Source: Escherichia coli
GTDB lineage: Bacteria; Pseudomonadota; Gammaproteobacteria; Enterobacterales; Enterobacteriaceae
Direction: 5' to 3' (one strand)
NCBI RefSeq assembly: GCF_045037415.1
Contig: NZ_CP173438.1
DNA: 64,000 nt
Under the pieces are notes generated by a model. The model made no database searches. It was not told the DNA's origin and worked only from the letters and a program-made list of their open reading frames with translations. Of this stretch, positions 1-15,904 are shown piece after piece (position 1 is the first letter of the stretch; the number at the start of each line of letters is the position of its first letter). The translations under genes and the position numbers were made by a program.

Positions 1-193
1 TACCGACACAAAACAGCAAAGGAAGGTTGGCGAAAATCAGGCCGCCGCAATTCGCCAGCAGCTCAATGTTAAATGAAATCCCGATGGCTAAAATCAAACC
101 CGCCGCCGGAAGAATGGCGATTGGTAACATCAGAGCAGAAGAAAATTTCTGCAACTTCTTGAAGTTAAACAAGGATGTTATTTTTTTGCTCAT
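1..193 (-). CDS. PTS glucose-family EIIC(B) permease, N-terminal 64 codons only (gene runs off the window start)
   Basis: Manual reverse-strand translation from ATG at 193-191 gives MSKKITSLFNFKKLQKFSSALMLPIAILPAAGLILAIGISF...GGLIFANLPLLFCVG, the pattern of glucose/NagE/MalX-type EIIC N-termini. GGAGA lies 7 nt upstream. Not in the ORF track because no stop falls in the window. Confidence 0.55.
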   Translation of the reverse strand, partial: MSKKITSLFNFKKLQKFSSALMLPIAILPAAGLILAIGISFNIELLANCGGLIFANLPLLFCVG

Positions 194-234
194 TTTTATT
201 CTCCTGTAGGGTATCGAGCAAATAACGGCGACGA

Positions 235-792
235 CTATTCCAGATTGGCGTGGCGCTTAAACAGTTCACTTTCCGGCGCACCACTTTCAGCAGCCATCTT
301 CATCACTAATGCATCGGCAATCACCAGCAAAGCTTGCTCATACAACGACGCCATCGGCTGTGCCGAGCGGAAAACAGAATCTTTTTGATTTTTGGAAGGG
401 GCATTGATTTGCACGATGACGTCGACAAACTCGGTGATAGTGGCGTGTCGATTCGTGGTTAACACCGCCACAGCGCCGCCGAGCTGACGTGCTTTTTTCG
501 CCAGCGCCACCAGTTGTGCTGTCTCACCGGAAGCAGAAGAAACGATAAACAGATCGCCAGGCCCAAAGTTCGGCGTAATGGTTTCCGTCAGGAAGTAAAC
601 CTCTTTTCCCATATGCATCAGGCGCATGGTGAAGGCTTTCATAGAAAAACCGGCGCGTCCCAGGCCATAGCAGAAAACGCGCTGGCTTTGCTGAATAGTG
701 TCGATCAATTTGGTGCAGTCATCCTCACGGATAGAGTCCTTAACGAAGGTTAATTCATTGATGATCTCAGTGATGTACAGCTTTGCGTCCAT
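235..792 (-). CDS. SIS-domain sugar-phosphate isomerase (HxlB/Phi-like, about 185 aa)
   Basis: ORF 235..804 on the track. I prefer the ATG at 792 because GAGGTG sits 5 nt upstream. Size and the SSASGET/LTTN-type motifs fit single-SIS isomerases. Lies 41 bp upstream of the PTS EIIC start, same strand. Confidence 0.6.
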   Translation of the reverse strand: MDAKLYITEIINELTFVKDSIREDDCTKLIDTIQQSQRVFCYGLGRAGFSMKAFTMRLMHMGKEVYFLTETITPNFGPGDLFIVSSASGETAQLVALAKKARQLGGAVAVLTTNRHATITEFVDVIVQINAPSKNQKDSVFRSAQPMASLYEQALLVIADALVMKMAAESGAPESELFKRHANLE

Positions 793-1087
793 TTCACACC
801 TCATGAAATAATTTTCTCAAACACAAAATCTCATGAAATTTTATTTCATTCCAATGCATCAGTATGAAATGTGAAGCTAGTCACAAGAAAGATCATAGGT
901 TGATATGTTTTTCATTAAAAAACATAGAGATATCAAGTAATTTTTAATATGTGATGGAGAGGCAGATAGAAAAAATGGCGGAAATGACGAAATTTATTTC
1001 ATGAGAAGGGAATAAAGAAGATTTTCTTAAACAGGGTATGAACTGATATCTGGAATGGTTTACGCAGTATGCTGGGAAGACGTCGCT

Positions 1088-1123
1088 GTAATGAGAAAAG
1101 ACCGGGTGGTATTACCACCCGGT
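1088..1123 (-). terminator. Rho-independent terminator downstream of metE
   Basis: Hairpin ACCGGGTGG-TATTA-CCACCCGGT at 1101-1123, followed on the minus strand by CTTTTCTCATT. Confidence 0.6.
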
Positions 1124-1130
1124 TTGGATT

Positions 1131-3392
1131 TTACCCCCGACGCAAATTCTGCGCCGCCTGCACCATGTTCGCCAGTGCCGCGCGGGTTTCTGGCCAGCCG
1201 CGCGTTTTCAGGCCACAGTCCGGGTTGACCCACAGACGCTCTGCCGGAATGCGTTTTGCCGCTTTCTTCAGCAAGGCTTCAATCCATTCCACGCTCGGTA
1301 CGTTTGGCGAGTGAATGTCATAGACGCCAGGACCGATTTCATTTGGATAATCAAACTCTTCAAACGACTCCAGCAACTCCATGTCGGAACGCGAGGTTTC
1401 GATGGTGATGACGTCTGCGTCCAACGCCGCAATCGAATCCATAATGTCGTTGAACTCGCAGTAACACATGTGAGTGTGGATTTGTGTGTCATCTTTCGCC
1501 ACGGCGGCGTTGATACGGAAAGCCTCCACGCCCCACTGGAGATAGGCATCCCAGTCGCTGCGACGCAGTGGTAAACCTTCGCGCAATGCCGGTTCGTCAA
1601 TCTGAATGATGCCAATTCCAGCGGCTTCCAGATCGGCCACTTCATCACGCAGTGCCAGCGCAATCTGTTTGGCGATGGTTTCACGGCTGACATCTTCACG
1701 CGGGAACGACCAGCAGAGAATAGTCACCGGGCCAGTCAACATCCCTTTCACCGGTTTATCAGTCAGGGATTGCGCATATTTTGCCCACTCCACGGTAATC
1801 GGTGCCGGGCGGCTAACGTCACCAATAACAATCGGTGGCTTCACGCAGCGGGAACCGTAGCTCTGTACCCAACCGTTTTGCGTAAAGACAAAGCCATCCA
1901 GATGCTCGCCAAAGTATTCCACCATGTCATTACGCTCGGCCTCGCCATGTACCAGCACATCCAGTCCCAAACGTTCCTGCTCAACAATGGCCTGCTTGAT
2001 ATGTTCCGCAATGCCCGTGCGGTAGTTATTGGCGTCGATATTACCCTTTTTAAAATCCAGACGCAGGGTACGAATCTCCGTGGTTTGCGGGAAGGAACCA
2101 ATCGTGGTGGTCGGCCACGCGGGCAGTTTAAAACGCGCACGCTGGGCTTCAGCACGCACTTCATAGACATTCGCACGCTGACTGTCCTGGGCGGTGATCG
2201 CCGCCAGACGCTTTTCTACTGCCGGATTATGTACACGAGTAGAGTGACGACGCGCCTGAATCGGAGCGCTCCACTCTGCCAGAGCTGCCGTATCACCACT
2301 GTTCAGCGCATCGCGCAGCAATGCCAGTTCATGACATTTTTGCAAGGCGAAGGCAAACCAGCTTTTCACTTCTGCATCAAGACGCGTTTCCACGCTCAGG
2401 TCGATGGGGCTGTGCAGCAGTGAGCAGGAAGATGCCACCCACAAATCACGTTTGCCGACAATGTCCTTAATTTGCGCATATTTCTCGGTAAGATCGGCGC
2501 GCCAGACGTTACGACCATTGATAAGACCCGCAGACAGCAGCCAGTCAGAAGGCAGGCGCTTGTGCAGTTCAGCAACGTCATCTTTACCATGTACAAGATC
2601 GACATGCAGACCCTGAACAGGCAGCGCAGTAATCGTGTCGAGGTTTGGCGTTACGCCTTCAAAATAGGTGGTCAGCAGCAGTTTCACCTGGCCCTGGAGC
2701 GCGTCGTAAGCGGGTTTGTATGCATCCAGCCACGCCTGCGGCAGTTCCAGCACTAGCGCGGGTTCGTCGATCTGTACCCACTCAATGCCGCGTTTCGCTA
2801 GTTCTGCCAGCACTTGCTGATAAACCGGCAGAATGTCGTTCAGCAGGCTCAGGCGATCAAACTGTTCACCTTTCACTTTACCCAGCCACAGGTAGGTAAC
2901 CGGCCCCAGCAGCACAGGTTTCACCTTGTGGCCCAGCGCCAGCGCCTCGTCCACTTCCTCCAGCAGCTGCGTCCAGGTCAGTTTGAACTGTTGGCCTTTA
3001 ACGAACTCCGGCACCATGTAGTGATAGTTGGTGTTAAACCATTTGGTCATTTCCGCTGCCGCCGCAGGTTCGCCAGTCGGTGCACGTCCACGACCAATAC
3101 GGAACAGGGTATCGATATCTACCGAACCATCGTTGTTCTGATGACGTTGCGGAACATTACCCAGCAGCAGACTGGTTGTCAGTACATGATCGTACCAGGC
3201 AAAATCGCCCACCGGCAGCAGGTCGATACCCGCTTGCTTTTGTTGATCCCAGTGACGAGCACGCAATTCACGCCCTACCGCCAGCAGTTCTTCACGCGTG
3301 GAGTTCCCCGCCCAATAACTCTCTTGCGCTTTTTTCAGCTCGCGACGCAGGCCAACGCGAGGGAAACCGAGGGTGTGATTAAGAATTGTCAT
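1131..3392 (-). CDS. metE: Cobalamin-independent methionine synthase
   Basis: 753-aa ORF; N-terminus [29 protein letters not shown] and overall length match E. coli MetE. Confidence 0.97.
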
Positions 3393-3509: not shown

Positions 3510-4463
3510 ATGATCGAAGTAAAACACCTGAAAACGCTACAAGCGTTGCGGAACTGCGGCTCACTCGCAGCCGCTGCGGCGACGTTGCATCAAACGCAAT
3601 CCGCCCTGTCTCACCAGTTTAGCGATCTGGAACAACGCCTTGGCTTCCGGCTATTTGTGCGTAAAAGCCAGCCGCTTCGCTTTACACCGCAGGGAGAAAT
3701 CCTGTTGCAACTGGCAAATCAGGTGCTGCCGCAAATTAGCCAGGCACTGCAAGCCTGCAATGAACCGCAGCAGACGCGCCTGCGCATTGCCATAGAGTGC
3801 CATAGCTGTATTCAGTGGCTGACGCCCGCATTAGAAAATTTCCATAAGAACTGGCCGCAGGTGGAGATGGATTTTAAATCGGGCGTAACGTTTGATCCGC
3901 AGCCTGCGTTGCAACAGGGCGAGCTGGATCTGGTGATGACGTCCGATATTCTGCCGCGCAGTGGCCTGCATTATTCGCCGATGTTCGACTATGAAGTACG
4001 TCTGGTGTTAGCACCTGACCATCCACTGGCGGCAAAAACGCGTATTACACCGGAAGATCTCGCCAGCGAAACGCTGTTGATTTATCCGGTGCAGCGTAGC
4101 CGACTGGATGTCTGGCGGCATTTTCTTCAGCCAGCAGGCGTCAGCCCGTCACTGAAAAGCGTCGATAACACCTTATTGTTGATTCAGATGGTTGCCGCAC
4201 GGATGGGTATTGCCGCACTACCTCATTGGGTGGTGGAGAGTTTTGAACGCCAGGGTCTGGTGGTCACCAAAACCCTGGGCGAAGGCTTGTGGAGCCGACT
4301 GTACGCCGCCGTGCGCGATGGCGAGCAGCGTCAGCCGATTACAGAAGCGTTTATTCGTTCAGCGCGCAATCACGCCTGCGATCATCTGCCGTTTGTGAAG
4401 AGCGCGGAGCGACCCACTTACGATGCACCCACAGTGAGGCCAGGATCACCAGCGCGCCTGTAA
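3510..4463 (+). CDS. metR: LysR-family regulator of methionine biosynthesis
   Basis: 317-aa ORF; N-terminal HTH ([41 protein letters not shown]); divergent from metE. Confidence 0.95.
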
Positions 4464-8045: not shown

Positions 8046-8906
8046 ATGACGGAAGCAACGACACCACATGACGCAATCTTTAAGGCTTTTTTATCCCGAC
8101 CAGAAACGGCCCGTGACTTTATTGAAATTCATCTGCCGCCTTCTTTAGTTAAACTCTGCAATCTTGATACGCTCCATCTCGAGTCCAGCAGTTTTGTAGA
8201 GGAAAACCTACGCCAGTATTACAACGACGTACTTTATTCAGTAGAGACGACGAAAGGGTGCGGATATATCTATGTGTTGATTGAGCATCAAAGTTCACCT
8301 GATGAAAATATGGCGTTCCGTATGCTTCGCTATGCTATTGCCACCATGCAGCGGCATCTTGAAGCGGGACATGATTATCTGCCTCTGGTGATCCCCATTC
8401 TTTTTTACCAGGGAAAGCGTAGCCCATATCCATGGTCAACAAACTGGCTCGATGGTTTTCCGGATCCGGACATTGCACGCGATCTCTATTTTCATGCTTT
8501 TCCGCTGGTTGATATTACGCTAATTCCTGATGACGAAATCATGCAACACCGCAGCATGGCCGCCTTTACGCTGGTACAGAAGCATATCCGTCAACGGGAT
8601 ATGACAACGCTGTTAGATAAGTTATCCCGCTTAATGATTCTGGGGCAGATGAGCGGACAGCAAATACGCATGTTGATAAACTACATGGCGCTGGTAGGTG
8701 AAGCACAGGATGTACGAACATTAGTACATGGTCTGGCACAACGAGTGCCTCAACAAGGAGAGGAACTGATGACTTTAGCGGAAGAACTTCGGCGCGATGC
8801 CCTTCTCAATGTCGCAAAAGCCATGCTACAGCGTGGCTTTGATTTGCAGTTGATTATGGAAATGACCGGGCTTTCTCAGGAAGACCTTTATCAATTGCAA
8901 TCCTGA
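8046..8906 (+). CDS. Rpn/YhgA-like PD-(D/E)XK recombination-promoting nuclease family protein
   Basis: 286-aa ORF; N-terminal pattern TPHDAIFKAFL..ETARDFIEIHLP...LHLESSSFVEE...YNDVLYSV...YVLIEHQSS is what I recognise from E. coli RpnA-E (Transposase_31 family). Recalled, not searched. Confidence 0.75.
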   Translation: MTEATTPHDAIFKAFLSRPETARDFIEIHLPPSLVKLCNLDTLHLESSSFVEENLRQYYNDVLYSVETTKGCGYIYVLIEHQSSPDENMAFRMLRYAIATMQRHLEAGHDYLPLVIPILFYQGKRSPYPWSTNWLDGFPDPDIARDLYFHAFPLVDITLIPDDEIMQHRSMAAFTLVQKHIRQRDMTTLLDKLSRLMILGQMSGQQIRMLINYMALVGEAQDVRTLVHGLAQRVPQQGEELMTLAEELRRDALLNVAKAMLQRGFDLQLIMEMTGLSQEDLYQLQS

Positions 8907-12616: not shown

Positions 12617-13084
12617 ATGTCTGCCGTACTGACCGCTGAACAAGCCCTCAAATTAGTGGGTGAGATGTTTGTTTATCACATGCCATTTAACCGCGCATTG
12701 GGGATGGAACTGGAGCGTTACGAAAAAGAGTTCGCACAGCTGGCCTTTAAAAATCAGCCGATGATGGTGGGCAACTGGGCGCAAAGCATTTTACACGGCG
12801 GGGTCATTGCGTCGGCGCTGGATGTCGCCGCAGGTCTGGTGTGCGTGGGAAGTACCTTAACCCGCCACGAAACCATCAGTGAAGATGAACTACGCCAGCG
12901 GCTATCGCGGATGGGGACCATTGATCTTCGCGTCGATTATCTGCGCCCAGGCAGAGGAGAGCGTTTTACTGCTACCAGTAGCCTGTTGCGTGCAGGCAAT
13001 AAAGTCGCCGTCGCCCGCGTTGAATTACACAATGAAGAACAGCTTTATATTGCCAGTGCCACCGCCACCTATATGGTAGGTTGA
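12617..13084 (+). CDS. yigI: PaaI/YigI-family hotdog-fold thioesterase
   Basis: ORF 12599..13084; start taken at [12 protein letters not shown], giving 155 aa. Confidence 0.8.
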
Positions 13085-13135
13085 AGACATAAAAGCAGGT
13101 AAACTGCTGTTACCAATTAAAAATGAGTATTCCCG

Positions 13136-14026
13136 ATGGATGCAAAACAAACGCGGCAGGGCGTATTACTCGCTCTTGCCGCTTATTTTATTTGGGGTAT
13201 TGCGCCAGCGTACTTCAAACTGATTTACTACGTGCCCGCCGATGAGATCCTGACGCATCGCGTGATCTGGTCGTTTTTCTTTATGGTGGTGCTGATGAGC
13301 ATTTGCCGCCAGTGGTCCTATTTAAAAACGCTGATTCAGACGCCACAGAAAATTTTTATGCTGGCAGTCTCTGCCGTGCTGATTGGTGGCAACTGGCTAC
13401 TGTTTATCTGGGCGGTGAACAATCACCATATGCTGGAAGCGAGCCTTGGTTACTTTATTAACCCACTGGTGAACATTGTGCTGGGGATGATTTTCCTCGG
13501 CGAGCGATTCCGCCGGATGCAATGGCTGGCGGTGATTCTGGCGATTTGTGGCGTGTTGGTTCAGTTGTGGACTTTTGGTTCACTGCCGATCATCGCGCTG
13601 GGGCTGGCGTTTAGTTTTGCTTTCTACGGCCTGGTGCGCAAGAAGATTGCTGTTGAAGCGCAAACCGGCATGTTAATCGAAACTATGTGGTTGCTGCCCG
13701 TGGCGGCGATTTACCTGTTTGCTATTGCCGACAGCTCAACCAGTCATATGGGGCAAAACCCGATGTCGCTGAATTTACTGCTGATCGCCGCCGGTATTGT
13801 CACCACCGTGCCACTGTTGTGTTTTACTGCAGCTGCGACACGCCTGCGTCTCTCAACGTTAGGCTTTTTCCAGTACATTGGTCCGACGCTGATGTTCCTG
13901 CTGGCTGTGACGTTTTATGGTGAAAAACCGGGTGCCGATAAGATGGTGACTTTCGCCTTTATTTGGGTGGCGCTGGCAATTTTTGTGATGGATGCGATTT
14001 ATACGCAGCGTAGAATTTCCAAATAA
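13136..14026 (+). CDS. rarD: EamA/RarD-family permease
   Basis: 296-aa polytopic membrane ORF; N-terminus MDAKQTRQGVLLALAAYFIWGIAP. Confidence 0.9.
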   Translation: MDAKQTRQGVLLALAAYFIWGIAPAYFKLIYYVPADEILTHRVIWSFFFMVVLMSICRQWSYLKTLIQTPQKIFMLAVSAVLIGGNWLLFIWAVNNHHMLEASLGYFINPLVNIVLGMIFLGERFRRMQWLAVILAICGVLVQLWTFGSLPIIALGLAFSFAFYGLVRKKIAVEAQTGMLIETMWLLPVAAIYLFAIADSSTSHMGQNPMSLNLLLIAAGIVTTVPLLCFTAAATRLRLSTLGFFQYIGPTLMFLLAVTFYGEKPGADKMVTFAFIWVALAIFVMDAIYTQRRISK

Positions 14027-14120
14027 AAAATAAATATATTCTGAAAAAATATGCCTGCTCTTGCATAAGAGCGGGAATATTGCCATGCTAACGAAATTCT
14101 TACACAAGGATGTAAAATTA

Positions 14121-14501
14121 ATGTTGCGTATATTTATTCCAACATCTAAAGGCAGAATTTCCAGACGCCGCTATATATTTTCATTTATTTTTACAAATCT
14201 AATTTGTATCTTACTTATTTCTTTTTTTTCCAATGCCGGGGCTGGTTTCTTTGTTATAACATCTACCATTCTTTTACATTATCTCGTTATCAACATGAAT
14301 TGCCAACGACTCCGGGATAGTGGTTTTACTTATATAAAAACTTATATTTTTAGTACATTAGTAGTCTATATCATTTCTTTCATCATCATGGTTGCTGAGC
14401 ATTTTGACTGTTCTGGCAATGGTTCGATGATTTTTTTGATTTGTTATTTTTCCACCTTTGGCATGTTAGTTCTTGCCCCCACTGATTCCCCCCGTAAATA
14501 A
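14121..14501 (+). CDS. yigG: DUF805-family inner membrane protein
   Basis: ORF 14061..14501; RISRRRY motif near the N-terminus is typical of DUF805. Start chosen at MLRIF to give 126 aa. Sits in a low-GC block. Confidence 0.65.
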
Positions 14502-14515
14502 TTAATGGAGATTTT

Positions 14516-14896
14516 ATGAGTAAGGATTATATGGCAGATGGCTCATTAACTGAAAAGTGGAAGTACCGCTTTTCGTTTTATGATGAACATGGCTTCCCTG
14601 GATTTTGGGGTGCAAGCCCAGAATATAAACAAGCATTAAAAGGATTAAACACAAGGCAAAAGATAATAATTAGAACAAATGTTATTGCTTTTTTCTTCTC
14701 GTGGGTCTATTTATTTGTATTGGGTTTATGGAAGAAGGCTATTGTTGTTCTATTCCTGGCGATATTTTCTTTAATTTTTGGTTACATGATTGGCTATAAT
14801 GTATTTGGATTCATTATCGCCGCTTATGTTTCATACAATACCAACAGATGGTTCTATGAAAAAGAAGTAAAAGGTATTCATACCTGGAGCCTTTAA
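14516..14896 (+). CDS. yigF: DUF2628-like inner membrane protein
   Basis: 126-aa ORF with two TM segments; 14 bp after yigG; low GC. Confidence 0.65.
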   Translation: MSKDYMADGSLTEKWKYRFSFYDEHGFPGFWGASPEYKQALKGLNTRQKIIIRTNVIAFFFSWVYLFVLGLWKKAIVVLFLAIFSLIFGYMIGYNVFGFIIAAYVSYNTNRWFYEKEVKGIHTWSL

Positions 14897-14902
14897 ATAA
14901 TC

Positions 14903-14940
14903 GGTGGCTTAGCCAGGCTAAGCCACCGTTCTCGTTTTTT
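14903..14940 (+). terminator. Rho-independent terminator after yigF (T-run overlaps the corA stop codon)
   Basis: Inverted repeat GGTGGCTTAGCC/GGCTAAGCCACC at 14903-14927, followed by GTTCTCGTTTTTT. Confidence 0.6.
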
Positions 14941-15904
14941 ACAGCCAGTTCTTCCGCTTAAAGTACAGATACGGTGCCAGGCCCGCGAGGATCATAAAGA
15001 TAATCGCGCCTGGGTAGCCGAAGCTCCACTTCAGTTCCGGCATAAACTCAAAGTTCATCCCGTAGCTGGAAGCGACCAGCGTCGGTGGCAGGAACACCAC
15101 GGATACCACCGAGAAGATTTTGATGATGCGGTTCTGCTCGATATTGATAAAGCCCATCGCCGCCTGCATCAGGAAGTTCACCTTCTGGAACAGGGATTCG
15201 TTATGCGGCAGCAGGGATTCGATATCTCGCAGGATTTCACGCGCCTGCTCCAGTTGCCCACCCGGTAAGCGTGCTTTACGTACCAGGAAGTTGAGCGCGC
15301 GCTGGGTATCCATCAGACACAGGCGAACTTTCCAGCCGATATCTTCCAGTTCCGCCAGCGTGGAGAGCGCCTCGTCGTACTCATCGCCCTGATGCCCTTC
15401 CATAATTACCCGGCTCAACTGCTCCAGGTCGCTGTAGATATTTTCAATTTCATCTGCCAACTGTTCGATTTTGGTTTCGAACAGATCCAGCAGCAGCTCG
15501 TAGGCGTTACCGTCCACCATTGACTGGCTACGGGCACGCATACGATACAGACGAAAAGCGGGCAGTTCACGCTCACGCAGAGTAAACAGACGACCATCAC
15601 GGATGGTAAATGCCACAGTGGAGTTACCGGCGTGATCTTCCGCATCTTCAAAGAAGAAGAAGGAGTGAATATGCAGGCCGTCATCGTCTTCAAAGAAACG
15701 TGCCGATGCTTCGATGTCTTCCAGTTCCGGGCGGGTTGCCAGGCTCTGGCCAAGTTCAGATTGTACGCGCAGTCGCTCGTCGTCGTCCGGTTCGACAAGA
15801 TCAATCCATACTGCATTTACAAGGGGTTGTGACTCTTCGACTTCCAGCCGGGTCAGTCGGTTATTTTCCAGTTGAAATGCGCTCAGCATGACCGGGACTC
15901 CCAA
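14939..15904 (-). CDS. corA: Mg2+/Co2+ transporter CorA
   Basis: 321-aa ORF ending in two TM helices with the GMN signature ([11 protein letters not shown]). Confidence 0.95.

Follow-up and report, generated by a model that had tools for sequence, protein, structure and literature searches.

A 16-kb region with metE on one side and ysgA on the other, the tkt1 genomic island is characteristic of phylogroup B2 ExPEC (Li et al. 2012, BMC Microbiol 12:51, PMC3349570); Table 2 of that report lists a 'putative sugar isomerase', a 'PTS glucose-specific IIBC', tkt1 and a regulator. In strain BEN2908 this island carries the designation GR29 (PLoS One 2026, PMC12928451). Its association with phylogroup B2 ExPEC was drawn both by Li et al. 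2012 (PMC3349570) and by Ward et al. 2016, in whose study hxlB is a top gene for NEC-risk UPEC clades. A literature search on the function of these genes returned nothing besides these three papers, and the BEN2908 genome paper places the ORFs under 'Uncharacterized features', in agreement with an earlier note on the DNA studied here, which had spoken of an uncharacterised pathway.

Other described systems are related to the locus through its gene products, the hxlAB genes of Bacillus subtilis and methylotrophs through the isomerase and Escherichia coli PtsG through the permease. Accessory transketolase-containing PTS clusters include the pentitol clusters of Listeria and Lactobacillus, and transketolase also serves a branch of D-apiose catabolism. 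Compared by description only, these clusters likewise combine a dedicated transporter with a transketolase for an unusual ketose phosphate, but they rely on ABC transporters or on PTSs of other families, and have dehydrogenases or epimerases where a PHI-type isomerase stands here.

The locus described here occupies the start of the window, a 64-kb stretch of E. coli DNA. We consider, with a probability of about 0.8, that positions 1..~1049 are the metE-proximal end of the tkt1 genomic island, a mainly phylogroup-B2 ExPEC accessory region, and that they carry the first two genes of a CRP-activated three-gene catabolic operon in which a PTS permease, an isomerase and Tkt1 act on a hexose-like sugar.

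Identity and boundaries of the island

The earlier note had described, downstream of metE on the minus strand, a single-SIS-domain isomerase gene forming an operon with that of a glucose-family PTS IIC(B). The observation is correct to the base, every coordinate having been checked, and is confirmed by the RefSeq annotation of the identical locus and by family models. Over 1-1130 the DNA is 100% identical to the SK1144 and O25:H4 genomes, whose annotation gives the operon as hxlB-ptsG-tkt alongside a MurR/RpiR gene; close matches include ATCC 25922 and APEC O18. Only the first two island genes lie inside the window, and we infer the rest from the genomes that are 100% identical over 1-1130. 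In these the full operon consists of the hxlB-like gene, the IICB gene and tkt1, with a convergent RpiR-family regulator gene just past tkt1.

The isomerase/PTS pair at metE is thus already known, as the right-hand end of the published tkt1 island, with which it agrees in chromosomal site (metE..ysgA), gene order and proteins. The SK1144 island spans ysgA to metE, and its RefSeq gene order is that of Table 2 of Li et al.: sugar isomerase, PTS IIBC, tkt1, two regulators, permease, carbamate kinase, yahG/F/E-like genes and an isochorismatase-like hydrolase. The corresponding APEC O1 tags are APECO1_2643 (sugar isomerase), _2642 (PTS IIBC), _2641 (tkt1) and _2640 (regulator). No EIIA gene is encoded in the island. 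The island is ~14 kb in the window's strain type as against 16 kb in APEC O1; compared with the APEC O1 and ATCC 25922 islands, the window form lacks a ~2-kb segment with a tssD(Hcp) pseudogene between the isomerase gene and metE.

To the right of the island lie metE (1131..3392, minus strand, a 753-aa ORF) and metR (3510..4463, plus strand). K-12 has ysgA-udp at this site, with ysgA directly beside metE, so the earlier note's reading of a gene order unlike that of K-12 holds. The possibility that the pair are K-12 core genes was rejected: both are absent from K-12, whose match within 1-1130 is confined to 1047..1130.

The right junction is marked by a remnant copy of the last ~13 ysgA codons (1050..1092, plus strand), and 1050-1130 aligns with the 3' end of K-12 ysgA and the intergenic region that follows. 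Positions 1051-1083 match the 3' end of SK1144 ysgA (L009 13269-13301) at 27 of 33 positions, such that the remnant and the 3' end of the genuine ysgA gene, at the left junction, make up an imperfect direct repeat of 33 nt. No flanking repeats were reported by Li et al. 2012 (PMC3349570); the imperfect duplication of the ysgA 3' end seen here differs in that respect. The metE terminator hairpin (ACCGGGTGGTAATACCACCCGGT, followed by a T-run; 1101..1123, minus strand) falls in the stretch common with K-12 and belongs to the core genome outside the island.

Distribution and constraint

The operon is intact and full length (at >=98% coverage, i.e. at least 98%) in 1134 of 5426 complete E. coli genomes, about a fifth, with 98.8-100% identity among the island-bearing genomes; the junction form of the window is found in 693 genomes, out of the 1134. 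The earlier note's description of strain-variable accessory content is borne out by these numbers. Strain R11 has an IS1 insertion within the operon. Between E. coli and Klebsiella, all four genes have pN values of 0.06-0.14 against pS values of 0.74-0.91, and since pN is far below pS, all four appear to be under functional constraint.

The island also contains a nitrogen module composed of an NCS1 permease, a carbamate kinase, FdrA/YahF-, YahG- and YahE-like proteins and the isochorismatase-like hydrolase. The similarity to Photobacterium discussed in the BEN2908 genome paper (PMC12928451) concerns this module and not the sugar operon.

The regulatory region

The spacer between the isomerase gene and metE is AT-rich, as the earlier note had stated, although its length is 338 bp (793..1130) when counted from the start codon at 792; the 326 bp given there is obtained by counting from an ATG at 804. 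GC content is 34% over the whole spacer and 29% in its island-specific part (793..1049, minus strand), compared with 52% for the whole window. This island-specific segment is the regulatory region upstream of the operon and contains a Shine-Dalgarno sequence, two conserved GAAA-N4-5-TTTC(ATGA) palindromes and a predicted CRP site.

The CRP site (TGTGAAGCTAGTCACA, 870..885) is a perfect CRP-cAMP consensus whose centre is ~85 nt upstream of the isomerase start codon. It is the sole exact TGTGA-N6-TCACA in the 64-kb window, where 0.05 would be expected by chance, and its TTGTGA half-site does not vary among E. coli, Klebsiella and Serratia. From this perfect and conserved site we predict that transcription needs cAMP-CRP. 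A sigma-70 promoter scan of the spacer found nothing above threshold and no strong consensus, a point against the proposed mechanism, though consistent with a promoter that depends on an activator. At 838-843 (gene sense) there is a possible element, the hexamer TAAAAT, whose spacing to the CRP site is non-canonical.

The distal palindrome (833..849) is perfect, ATGAAAT-TTT-ATTTCAT, with a core, GAAA..TTTCATGA, that is conserved in Klebsiella and Serratia; it is a candidate operator, probably for the RpiR-family regulator, the putative binding protein. The proximal GAAA-N-TTTC(ATGA) palindrome (803..816) abuts the ribosome-binding site and reads, on the sense strand, GAAAATTATTTCATGAGG in E. 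coli, GAAATTAATTTCATGAGG in Klebsiella and GAAATATTATTTCTTGGAGG in Serratia. In the mechanism we propose, a sugar-phosphate-sensing RpiR repressor would shut the operon off at these two conserved palindromes.

The isomerase and its clade

The first gene (235..792, minus strand; RefSeq 'hxlB' WP_000339043.1; APECO1_2643 'putative sugar isomerase') encodes a 185-aa single-SIS-domain sugar-phosphate isomerase of the 6-phospho-3-hexuloisomerase (PHI) family. A mechanical ORF list begins it at the ATG at 804 (189 aa, stop ending at 235 on the minus strand), but the start at 792, and with it the ~185 aa of the earlier note, is backed by the SK1144 RefSeq annotation and by alignment with the Klebsiella and Serratia orthologues; a GAGGTG Shine-Dalgarno lies ahead of it at 797-802. 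The PHI/HxlB model TIGR03127 scores 205.1 bits against a cutoff of 160 over residues 8-185 of 185, and the closest solved relative is B. subtilis YckF/HxlB (1m3s, E 3e-39), with 39% identity (PMC12928451). Fifteen residues (E13, G45, R46, G48, R57, S88, G89, T91, K134, Q145, P146, E152, Q153, D160 and H181) are kept in the isomerase and invariant over 83 homologues drawn from both PHI clades. A GmhA-like sedoheptulose-7-P isomerase was considered and discarded, the GmhA model scoring 25.7 bits against a cutoff of 320, which places the protein outside the GmhA family. A heptulose substrate for the isomerase is only a speculation.

The protein is thus like HxlB/YckF in its full-length homology and in keeping the residues invariant in HPS-linked PHIs, but it is unlike the hxlAB system in its surroundings: it has no HPS partner, and the genes around it encode a PTS permease, a transketolase and an RpiR regulator. 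Within the PHI family it falls in a separate clade, mean identity being 41% between clades versus 53-58% within them. HPS genes, sought with a probe that TIGR03128 confirmed (296.8 bits, cutoff 200), are beside none of the 12 clade members and beside all 72 PHIs outside the clade, at a distance of ~600 bp; none is present in the island. Strictly clade-specific residues number two, L44 and A47, too few to predict a change in specificity.

Members of the clade lie beside PTS genes and/or transketolase and RpiR genes in Klebsiella, Serratia, Enterococcus, Enterocloster, Glutamicibacter, Olsenella, Bifidobacterium, Secundilactobacillus and a Lachnospiraceae MAG, spanning three phyla. The earlier suggestion that the isomerase acts on the phosphorylated PTS product is supported, as a putative role, by the conserved linkage of the clade with PTS genes in Enterobacterales, Enterococcus, Olsenella, Bifidobacterium and Glutamicibacter. 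The PTS partners of the Gram-positive members are of a beta-glucoside-like subfamily and not the Glc subfamily, and what is transported may therefore vary from one lineage to another. In Klebsiella, Serratia and Glutamicibacter the modules are extended by a Gfo/Idh/MocA oxidoreductase, an AP_endonuc_2 enzyme and an alpha/beta-hydrolase. A Bifidobacterium regulon paper (PMC4746261) contains nothing on the isomerase/PTS/Tkt module.

These relationships bear on whether the operon serves RuMP-type fixation or detoxification of formaldehyde. The isomerase would then be a true HxlB, converting D-arabino-3-hexulose-6-P to fructose-6-P, with Tkt1 regenerating ribulose-5-P, and with formaldehyde and ribulose-5-P joined to give the hexulose-6-P by a synthase from another locus, such as the promiscuous UlaD/SgbH decarboxylases. 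That the protein passes the NCBIfam HxlB equivalog model and keeps every residue invariant across HPS-linked PHIs agrees with such a role, as do the place of transketolase in the RuMP cycle and the weak HPS side activity of UlaD-type enzymes. Nevertheless we regard it as very unlikely, given the missing HPS in the island and around the clade, where each of the 72 PHIs outside the clade has one. Moreover, PTS permeases, CRP sites and RpiR regulators typify sugar catabolism and not a formaldehyde response, for which the canonical hxlAB regulator is HxlR, and the clade is found in gut fermenters without known C1 metabolism. Because the clade is never HPS-adjacent and stands beside transketolase and/or PTS genes in three phyla, the name 'hxlB' may mislabel the physiological role; the label probably describes the chemistry of the enzyme and not its function in the cell, which is probably not formaldehyde assimilation.

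The EIICB permease

The second gene begins 41 bp beyond the isomerase stop codon, the intergenic gap (194..234, same minus strand) having exactly the length given in the earlier note and containing no terminator-like site. Positions 1..193 (minus strand) encode the 5' end, codons 1-64, of a 502-aa glucose-family PTS EIICB (RefSeq 'ptsG' WP_000037971.1; APECO1_2642), the remainder of which lies to the left of the window. The translation of 193..1 is stop-free and begins MSKKITSLFNFKK, the N-terminus of IICB. Beyond the window edge the frame continues intact to 502 aa in the 100%-identical genomes. A pseudogene or truncated EIIC is ruled out by full length in all 1134 operon-bearing genomes, by intact motifs and by pN values far below pS.

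IICB has a GITE motif at residue 305 and a CATRLR phospho-cysteine motif with Cys434. Family models identify EIIC and EIIB domains (TIGR00852 and TIGR00826) and no EIIA domain in the protein. It shares with E. coli PtsG, its best solved relative (387 bits), the C-then-B domain order, GITE, the CxTRLR phospho-cysteine motif and the lack of an EIIA of its own. It differs from PtsG in that the two proteins are only 44% identical (PMC12928451), that it scores below the PtsG equivalog cutoff, and that its gene shares an operon, and a CRP site, with an isomerase gene. Since the island is without EIIA, EIICB would use the chromosomal EIIA-Glc (Crr), through which, judging from its family and intact motifs, it would be phosphorylated by the general PTS.

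The automatic name raises the question of whether IICB is simply another PtsG, the operon adding only glucose-uptake and pentose-phosphate capacity. TIGR02002 matches just above its cutoff (606.9 bits against 591.8), the identity to PtsG is the 44% given above, and Tkt1 resembles a canonical transketolase; all of this, along with the RefSeq name ptsG, is in keeping with a second glucose PTS. The E. coli-PtsG equivalog model NF008301, however, fails (443.8 against 647), glucose-6-P requires no PHI-type isomerase, and a glucose transporter driven from a strong CRP site would repress its own expression. Taken with the tight cross-phylum linkage to the PHI-clade isomerase, which argues for a dedicated substrate, these points make a second PtsG most improbable. 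The location of the gene in an operon with the isomerase under a CRP site indicates that the substrate of IICB is probably other than glucose. By family and motifs, EIICB would import and phosphorylate a glucose-like hexose or a hexulose, not glucose itself.

Tkt1 and the island phenotypes

Tkt1, encoded outside the window, matches the transketolase model TIGR00232 over its full length (1008 bits against a cutoff of 682), has E. coli TktA/TktB as its solved relatives in the PDB, and is 68.7% identical to K-12 TktA. All 19 active-site positions checked (ThDP, metal and substrate-binding) are identical, the list following the E. coli TktA structures. Tkt1 would accordingly be expected, from this identity and these residues, to be a working transketolase that passes the product to the pentose-phosphate network. 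The adjacent regulator gene product is assigned to the RpiR family by family models.

Genetic data come from Li et al. 2012 (PMC3349570), in which a tkt1 transposon mutant was out-competed in chickens. Over-expression of Tkt1 did not rescue the K-12 tktA mutant BJ502 on arabinose (PMC3349570), protein level and activity being unmeasured there; this negative result, read by the authors as 'very little transketolase activity', is the only published test of Tkt1 transketolase activity in vivo. The tkt1 mutant did not differ from wild type in carbon-source use on Biolog plates, which is weak evidence, as TktA/TktB could have covered for the missing Tkt1 and no mutations had been made in the isomerase and PTS genes. 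It did have a reproducible, complementable defect in utilising Pro-Ala and Phe-Ala as nitrogen sources.

Li et al. concluded that tkt1 acts in peptide or nitrogen metabolism, and the operon could on that account work jointly with the nitrogen module, with the dipeptide defect, the lack of a carbon-source phenotype and the adjacency of the sugar and nitrogen modules in every island-bearing E. coli examined as evidence. We think this highly improbable. The three proteins of the operon are all members of carbohydrate families and have their catalytic motifs intact. In Klebsiella, Serratia, Enterococcus and other taxa the isomerase/PTS/Tkt/RpiR module is not accompanied by the nitrogen module, showing that the two are separable; there is no evident mechanism for a dipeptide phenotype of a transketolase, and the effect may be indirect.

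A possible sugar pathway

We prefer the reading of the operon as a sugar catabolic unit. Its isomerase would shift the carbonyl of a sugar phosphate through a 2,3-enediol, converting a 3-ketose phosphate or close analogue to a 2-ketose phosphate such as fructose-6-P, as predicted from its PHI-family membership and the retention of all family-invariant residues. Were fructose-6-P the product, a dedicated transketolase would be unnecessary, and hence part of the pathway logic is missing.

More broadly, and only tentatively, as we put the chances somewhat short of even, the isomerase may not be a RuMP enzyme at all: an HPS-independent PHI clade, a PTS of the Glc/Bgl superfamily (or, in its place, an ABC transporter with a kinase) and a transketolase of their own may jointly constitute an undescribed pathway of rare-sugar catabolism. 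Candidate substrates are a 3-ketose or 3-keto-sugar derivative whose phosphate ester would be isomerised to a transketolase substrate, for example a 3-hexulose or 3-heptulose phosphate to fructose-6-P or sedoheptulose-7-P. The Gfo/Idh/MocA, AP_endonuc_2 and alpha/beta-hydrolase additions to the related modules would fit 3-keto-sugar chemistry.

Implications

As a genomic feature the locus adds nothing new, the island having been described in 2012, annotated in RefSeq and put to use as a B2/UPEC marker. The linkage of the clade with transketolase and PTS genes across phyla, with HPS wholly absent, nonetheless suggests that the automatic names 'hxlB / 6-phospho-3-hexuloisomerase' and 'ptsG / glucose-specific' may mislead metabolic models, and that a defined, testable pathway may await discovery. 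If the rare-sugar reading is true, the pathway would be common to gut and urinary-tract bacteria of three phyla and would provide B2 ExPEC with a private nutrient.

Identity and distribution of the island

The locus at the left end of the window is the published tkt1 genomic island, a feature already known and annotated that is typical of B2 ExPEC. It was described in APEC O1 as a 16-kb island between metE and ysgA, prevalent among B2 ExPEC (Li et al. 2012, PMC3349570), and is the same as GR29 of a 2026 comparative paper, in which the SIS_PHI, PTS-II-BC-glcB and RpiR ORFs are placed under 'Uncharacterized features' (PMC12928451). hxlB is also among the genes most associated with UPEC clades carrying NEC risk (Ward et al. 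2016, PMC4819403).

The window opens inside a minus-strand gene for a PTS glucose-family EIICB (IICB; 193..1, stop-free translation MSKKITSLFNFKKLQKFSSALMLPIAILPAAGL...), separated by 41 bp from an isomerase ORF on the same strand (235..792, 185 aa); metE (1131..3392, minus strand) and metR (3510..4463, plus strand) follow in the ORF list. The isomerase start at 792, preceded by GAGGTG, is taken from the RefSeq annotation of an identical genome and from alignment of the Klebsiella and Serratia orthologues, whereas the ORF list begins at an ATG at 804 (189 aa). The earlier note gave the same gene coordinates and gap and was correct in its observation, including the AT-richness of the spacer before metE (GC 34%, and 29% in the part without a K-12 counterpart, versus 52% in the window). 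The spacer length differs: measured from the ATG at 804 it is the note's 326 bp, whereas from the start at 792 it is 338 bp (793..1130).

When window 1-1130 was compared by megablast with 5426 complete E. coli genomes, the matches were of three kinds. Full-length matches (99-100% identity) occur in 693 genomes, and among those listed the two genes are annotated hxlB (6-phospho-3-hexuloisomerase, PHI) and ptsG (glucose-specific PTS IIBC). In some strains, ATCC 25922 and APEC O18 among them, the match is confined to window 1-892; in K-12 and most other strains it is confined to 1047-1130, which covers the ysgA 3' end and the intergenic stretch between ysgA and metE. The K-12 order is metE-ysgA-udp with no genes between, so that the pair does lie outside it, and its proposed status as accessory content is borne out by the three-gene operon (hxlB, ptsG and tkt1), which is full length in 1134 of the 5426 genomes (21%; 98.8-100% identity). 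Strain R11 has an IS1 inserted within the operon, and one of the operon copies among these genomes is on a 294-kb plasmid-typed record, NZ_CP170379.1, that may be a chromosome fragment.

Reading leftward in SK1144, which is 100% identical, recovers the EIIC(B) and regulator that the earlier note proposed to seek beyond the window: the remainder of a 502-aa IICB, a 665-aa transketolase, and a convergent MurR/RpiR regulator. Farther on are a LysR regulator, an NCS1 permease, an allophanate-hydrolase-related protein, carbamate kinase, DUF1116, FdrA, DUF2877 and a cysteine hydrolase, followed by ysgA and udp.

Junctions, size forms and nearby variable segments

Window 1050-1130 aligns with the last K-12 ysgA codons and the K-12 intergenic region, including the metE terminator hairpin (1101-1123). 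A ysgA remnant of 13 codons lies at 1050-1092, and the intact ysgA at the opposite island end terminates ...LEWFTQYGVKK*. Because the remnant and the second 3'-end copy (SK1144 locus 13269-13301) are identical at 27/33 nt, the ysgA 3' end forms an imperfect 33-nt direct repeat on either side of the island; no flanking direct repeats were reported by Li et al. 2012 (PMC3349570).

The window strain has a short island form of about 14 kb. ATCC 25922 and APEC O1 have ~2 kb more between the isomerase gene and metE, which in ATCC 25922 (locus coordinates 12893-15150) comprises a tssD (Hcp) pseudogene, interrupted by an internal stop, together with two small hypothetical ORFs. This segment, carried by ST95-type and other B2 strains and missing from the window, accounts both for the 16-kb and ~14-kb sizes and for the many genomes matching only window 1-892.

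An Rpn-family recombination-promoting nuclease/putative transposase gene (window ~8046-8906, plus strand; SK1144 locus L001 20046-20906) lies between rhtB and rhtC, where ATCC 25922 has nothing, and is thus another small strain-variable insertion. A second islet, outside the window in the rmuC-udp interval of SK1144 (L009 5994-11433), encodes an IclR regulator, 2-dehydro-3-deoxygalactonokinase, KDPGal aldolase and a tripartite tricarboxylate transporter, and matches the '5-kb islet of 6 ORFs' of Li et al. (PMC3349570).

Proposed operon regulation

The single exact match to TGTGA-N6-TCACA in the 64-kb window (chance expectation 0.05) is at 870-885, a candidate CRP site ~85 nt before the start of the isomerase gene, and its TTGTGA half-site is unchanged in the sequence preceding the Klebsiella and Serratia orthologues. 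Between this site and the start codon are two GAAA-N4-5-TTTC(ATGA) palindromes (833-849 and 803-816), both kept in E. coli, Klebsiella and Serratia, which are most economically viewed as candidate operators with the RpiR protein as likeliest binder. A promoter scan of the spacer found no strong sigma-70 consensus upstream of the isomerase. The pattern of sites fits a cAMP-CRP-dependent, repressor-controlled catabolic promoter.

Operon proteins

The family calls of the earlier note hold for both proteins. With the HxlB model TIGR03127 the isomerase scores above threshold (205 bits, cutoff 160), and among solved structures it is closest to B. subtilis YckF/HxlB (E 3e-39). The IICB is narrowly above threshold for the general glucose IIBC model TIGR02002 (606.9, cutoff 591.8) and fails the E. 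coli PtsG model (443.8, cutoff 647); its identity to PtsG is 44% (PMC12928451). It carries the GITE motif as well as the phospho-cysteine motif CATRLR, and its sequence contains no EIIA domain. By analogy with other members of the glucose IICB family that lack EIIA, for which Crr dependence is established, it should be Crr-dependent.

Tkt1 (L001 8637-10634, outside the window) scores 1008 bits against the transketolase model, is 68.7% identical to K-12 TktA, and is identical at 19/19 checked active-site positions, and on these sequence grounds is a normal transketolase. This conservation sits uneasily with the 'very little transketolase activity' that Li et al. (PMC3349570) concluded from one failed complementation. 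Tkt1 is as similar to K-12 TktA as to V. cholerae TktA, the likeness stressed in the literature. Between E. coli and Klebsiella, purifying selection is strong on all four genes (the operon and RpiR), with pN 0.06-0.14 versus pS 0.74-0.91.

Comparative context and proposed function

Homologue neighbourhoods were inspected, and a PHI-alignment scan of one genome per species then yielded 80 loci, whose neighbours were classed by BLASTP against probes, including one for 3-hexulose-6-phosphate synthase (HPS) validated by TIGR03128 (296.8 bits, cutoff 200). The homologues divide sharply into two groups. The 72 PHI homologues with HPS about 600 bp away, each ≤43% identical to the E. coli isomerase, are canonical hxlAB pairs. 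Separate from these, a neighbour-joining tree groups 12 homologues in a single clade that contains none of the HPS-adjacent proteins (E. coli, two Klebsiella-type loci, Serratia, a proteobacterial conjugative-element contig, Enterococcus, Enterocloster, Glutamicibacter, Secundilactobacillus, a Lachnospiraceae MAG, Olsenella and Bifidobacterium samirii); the 12 have instead a full or split transketolase (8/12) and/or a Glc/Bgl-superfamily PTS (8/12) as neighbours. An RpiR gene is usually present; in Klebsiella, Serratia and Glutamicibacter the linkage extends to a Gfo/Idh/MocA oxidoreductase, an AP_endonuc_2 protein and an alpha/beta-hydrolase, and the Klebsiella and Serratia clusters additionally have a MOFRL-type kinase and an SgrR-like regulator. 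PHI-invariant residues are retained by both clades, and only L44 and A47 are strictly clade-specific. Given these retained residues and the HPS-free, Tkt/PTS-linked neighbourhoods, the isomerase probably has PHI-like chemistry and a physiological role other than formaldehyde fixation. A true ribulose-monophosphate role with HPS encoded elsewhere is less consistent with this context, as are a role in peptide/nitrogen metabolism, proposed for tkt1, and a redundant glucose PTS.

Two loci merit separate mention. Contig CACSKA010000003.1, titled Chryseobacterium sp. 18061, has a PHI-IICB-Tkt-RpiR-MOFRL cluster resembling that of Klebsiella, whose proteins share 76-89% identity with the E. coli/Klebsiella versions, and is probably an Enterobacterales contaminant or mislabelled assembly. 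Candidatus Olsenella pullistercoris has both PHI types at one locus, the Tkt/PTS/RpiR-linked clade member and, 4.5-5 kb off beside another PTS, an HPS and PHI-like pair, and might serve usefully as a natural comparison of both types.

The best reading is of a CRP-activated, RpiR-controlled catabolic operon, in which a glucose-like sugar would be phosphorylated by the Crr-dependent EIICB, the phosphate ester converted to a 2-ketose phosphate by the PHI-clade isomerase, and this product routed to the pentose-phosphate network by Tkt1. The earlier interpretation, of a PTS-dependent sugar-phosphate pathway in which the isomerase would act on the PTS product, was essentially right. One weak point is that fructose-6-P as product leaves a dedicated transketolase unexplained, a hint that some other transketolase substrate may be what the isomerase actually yields; a 3-ketose, 3-keto-sugar or heptulose as substrate is speculation.
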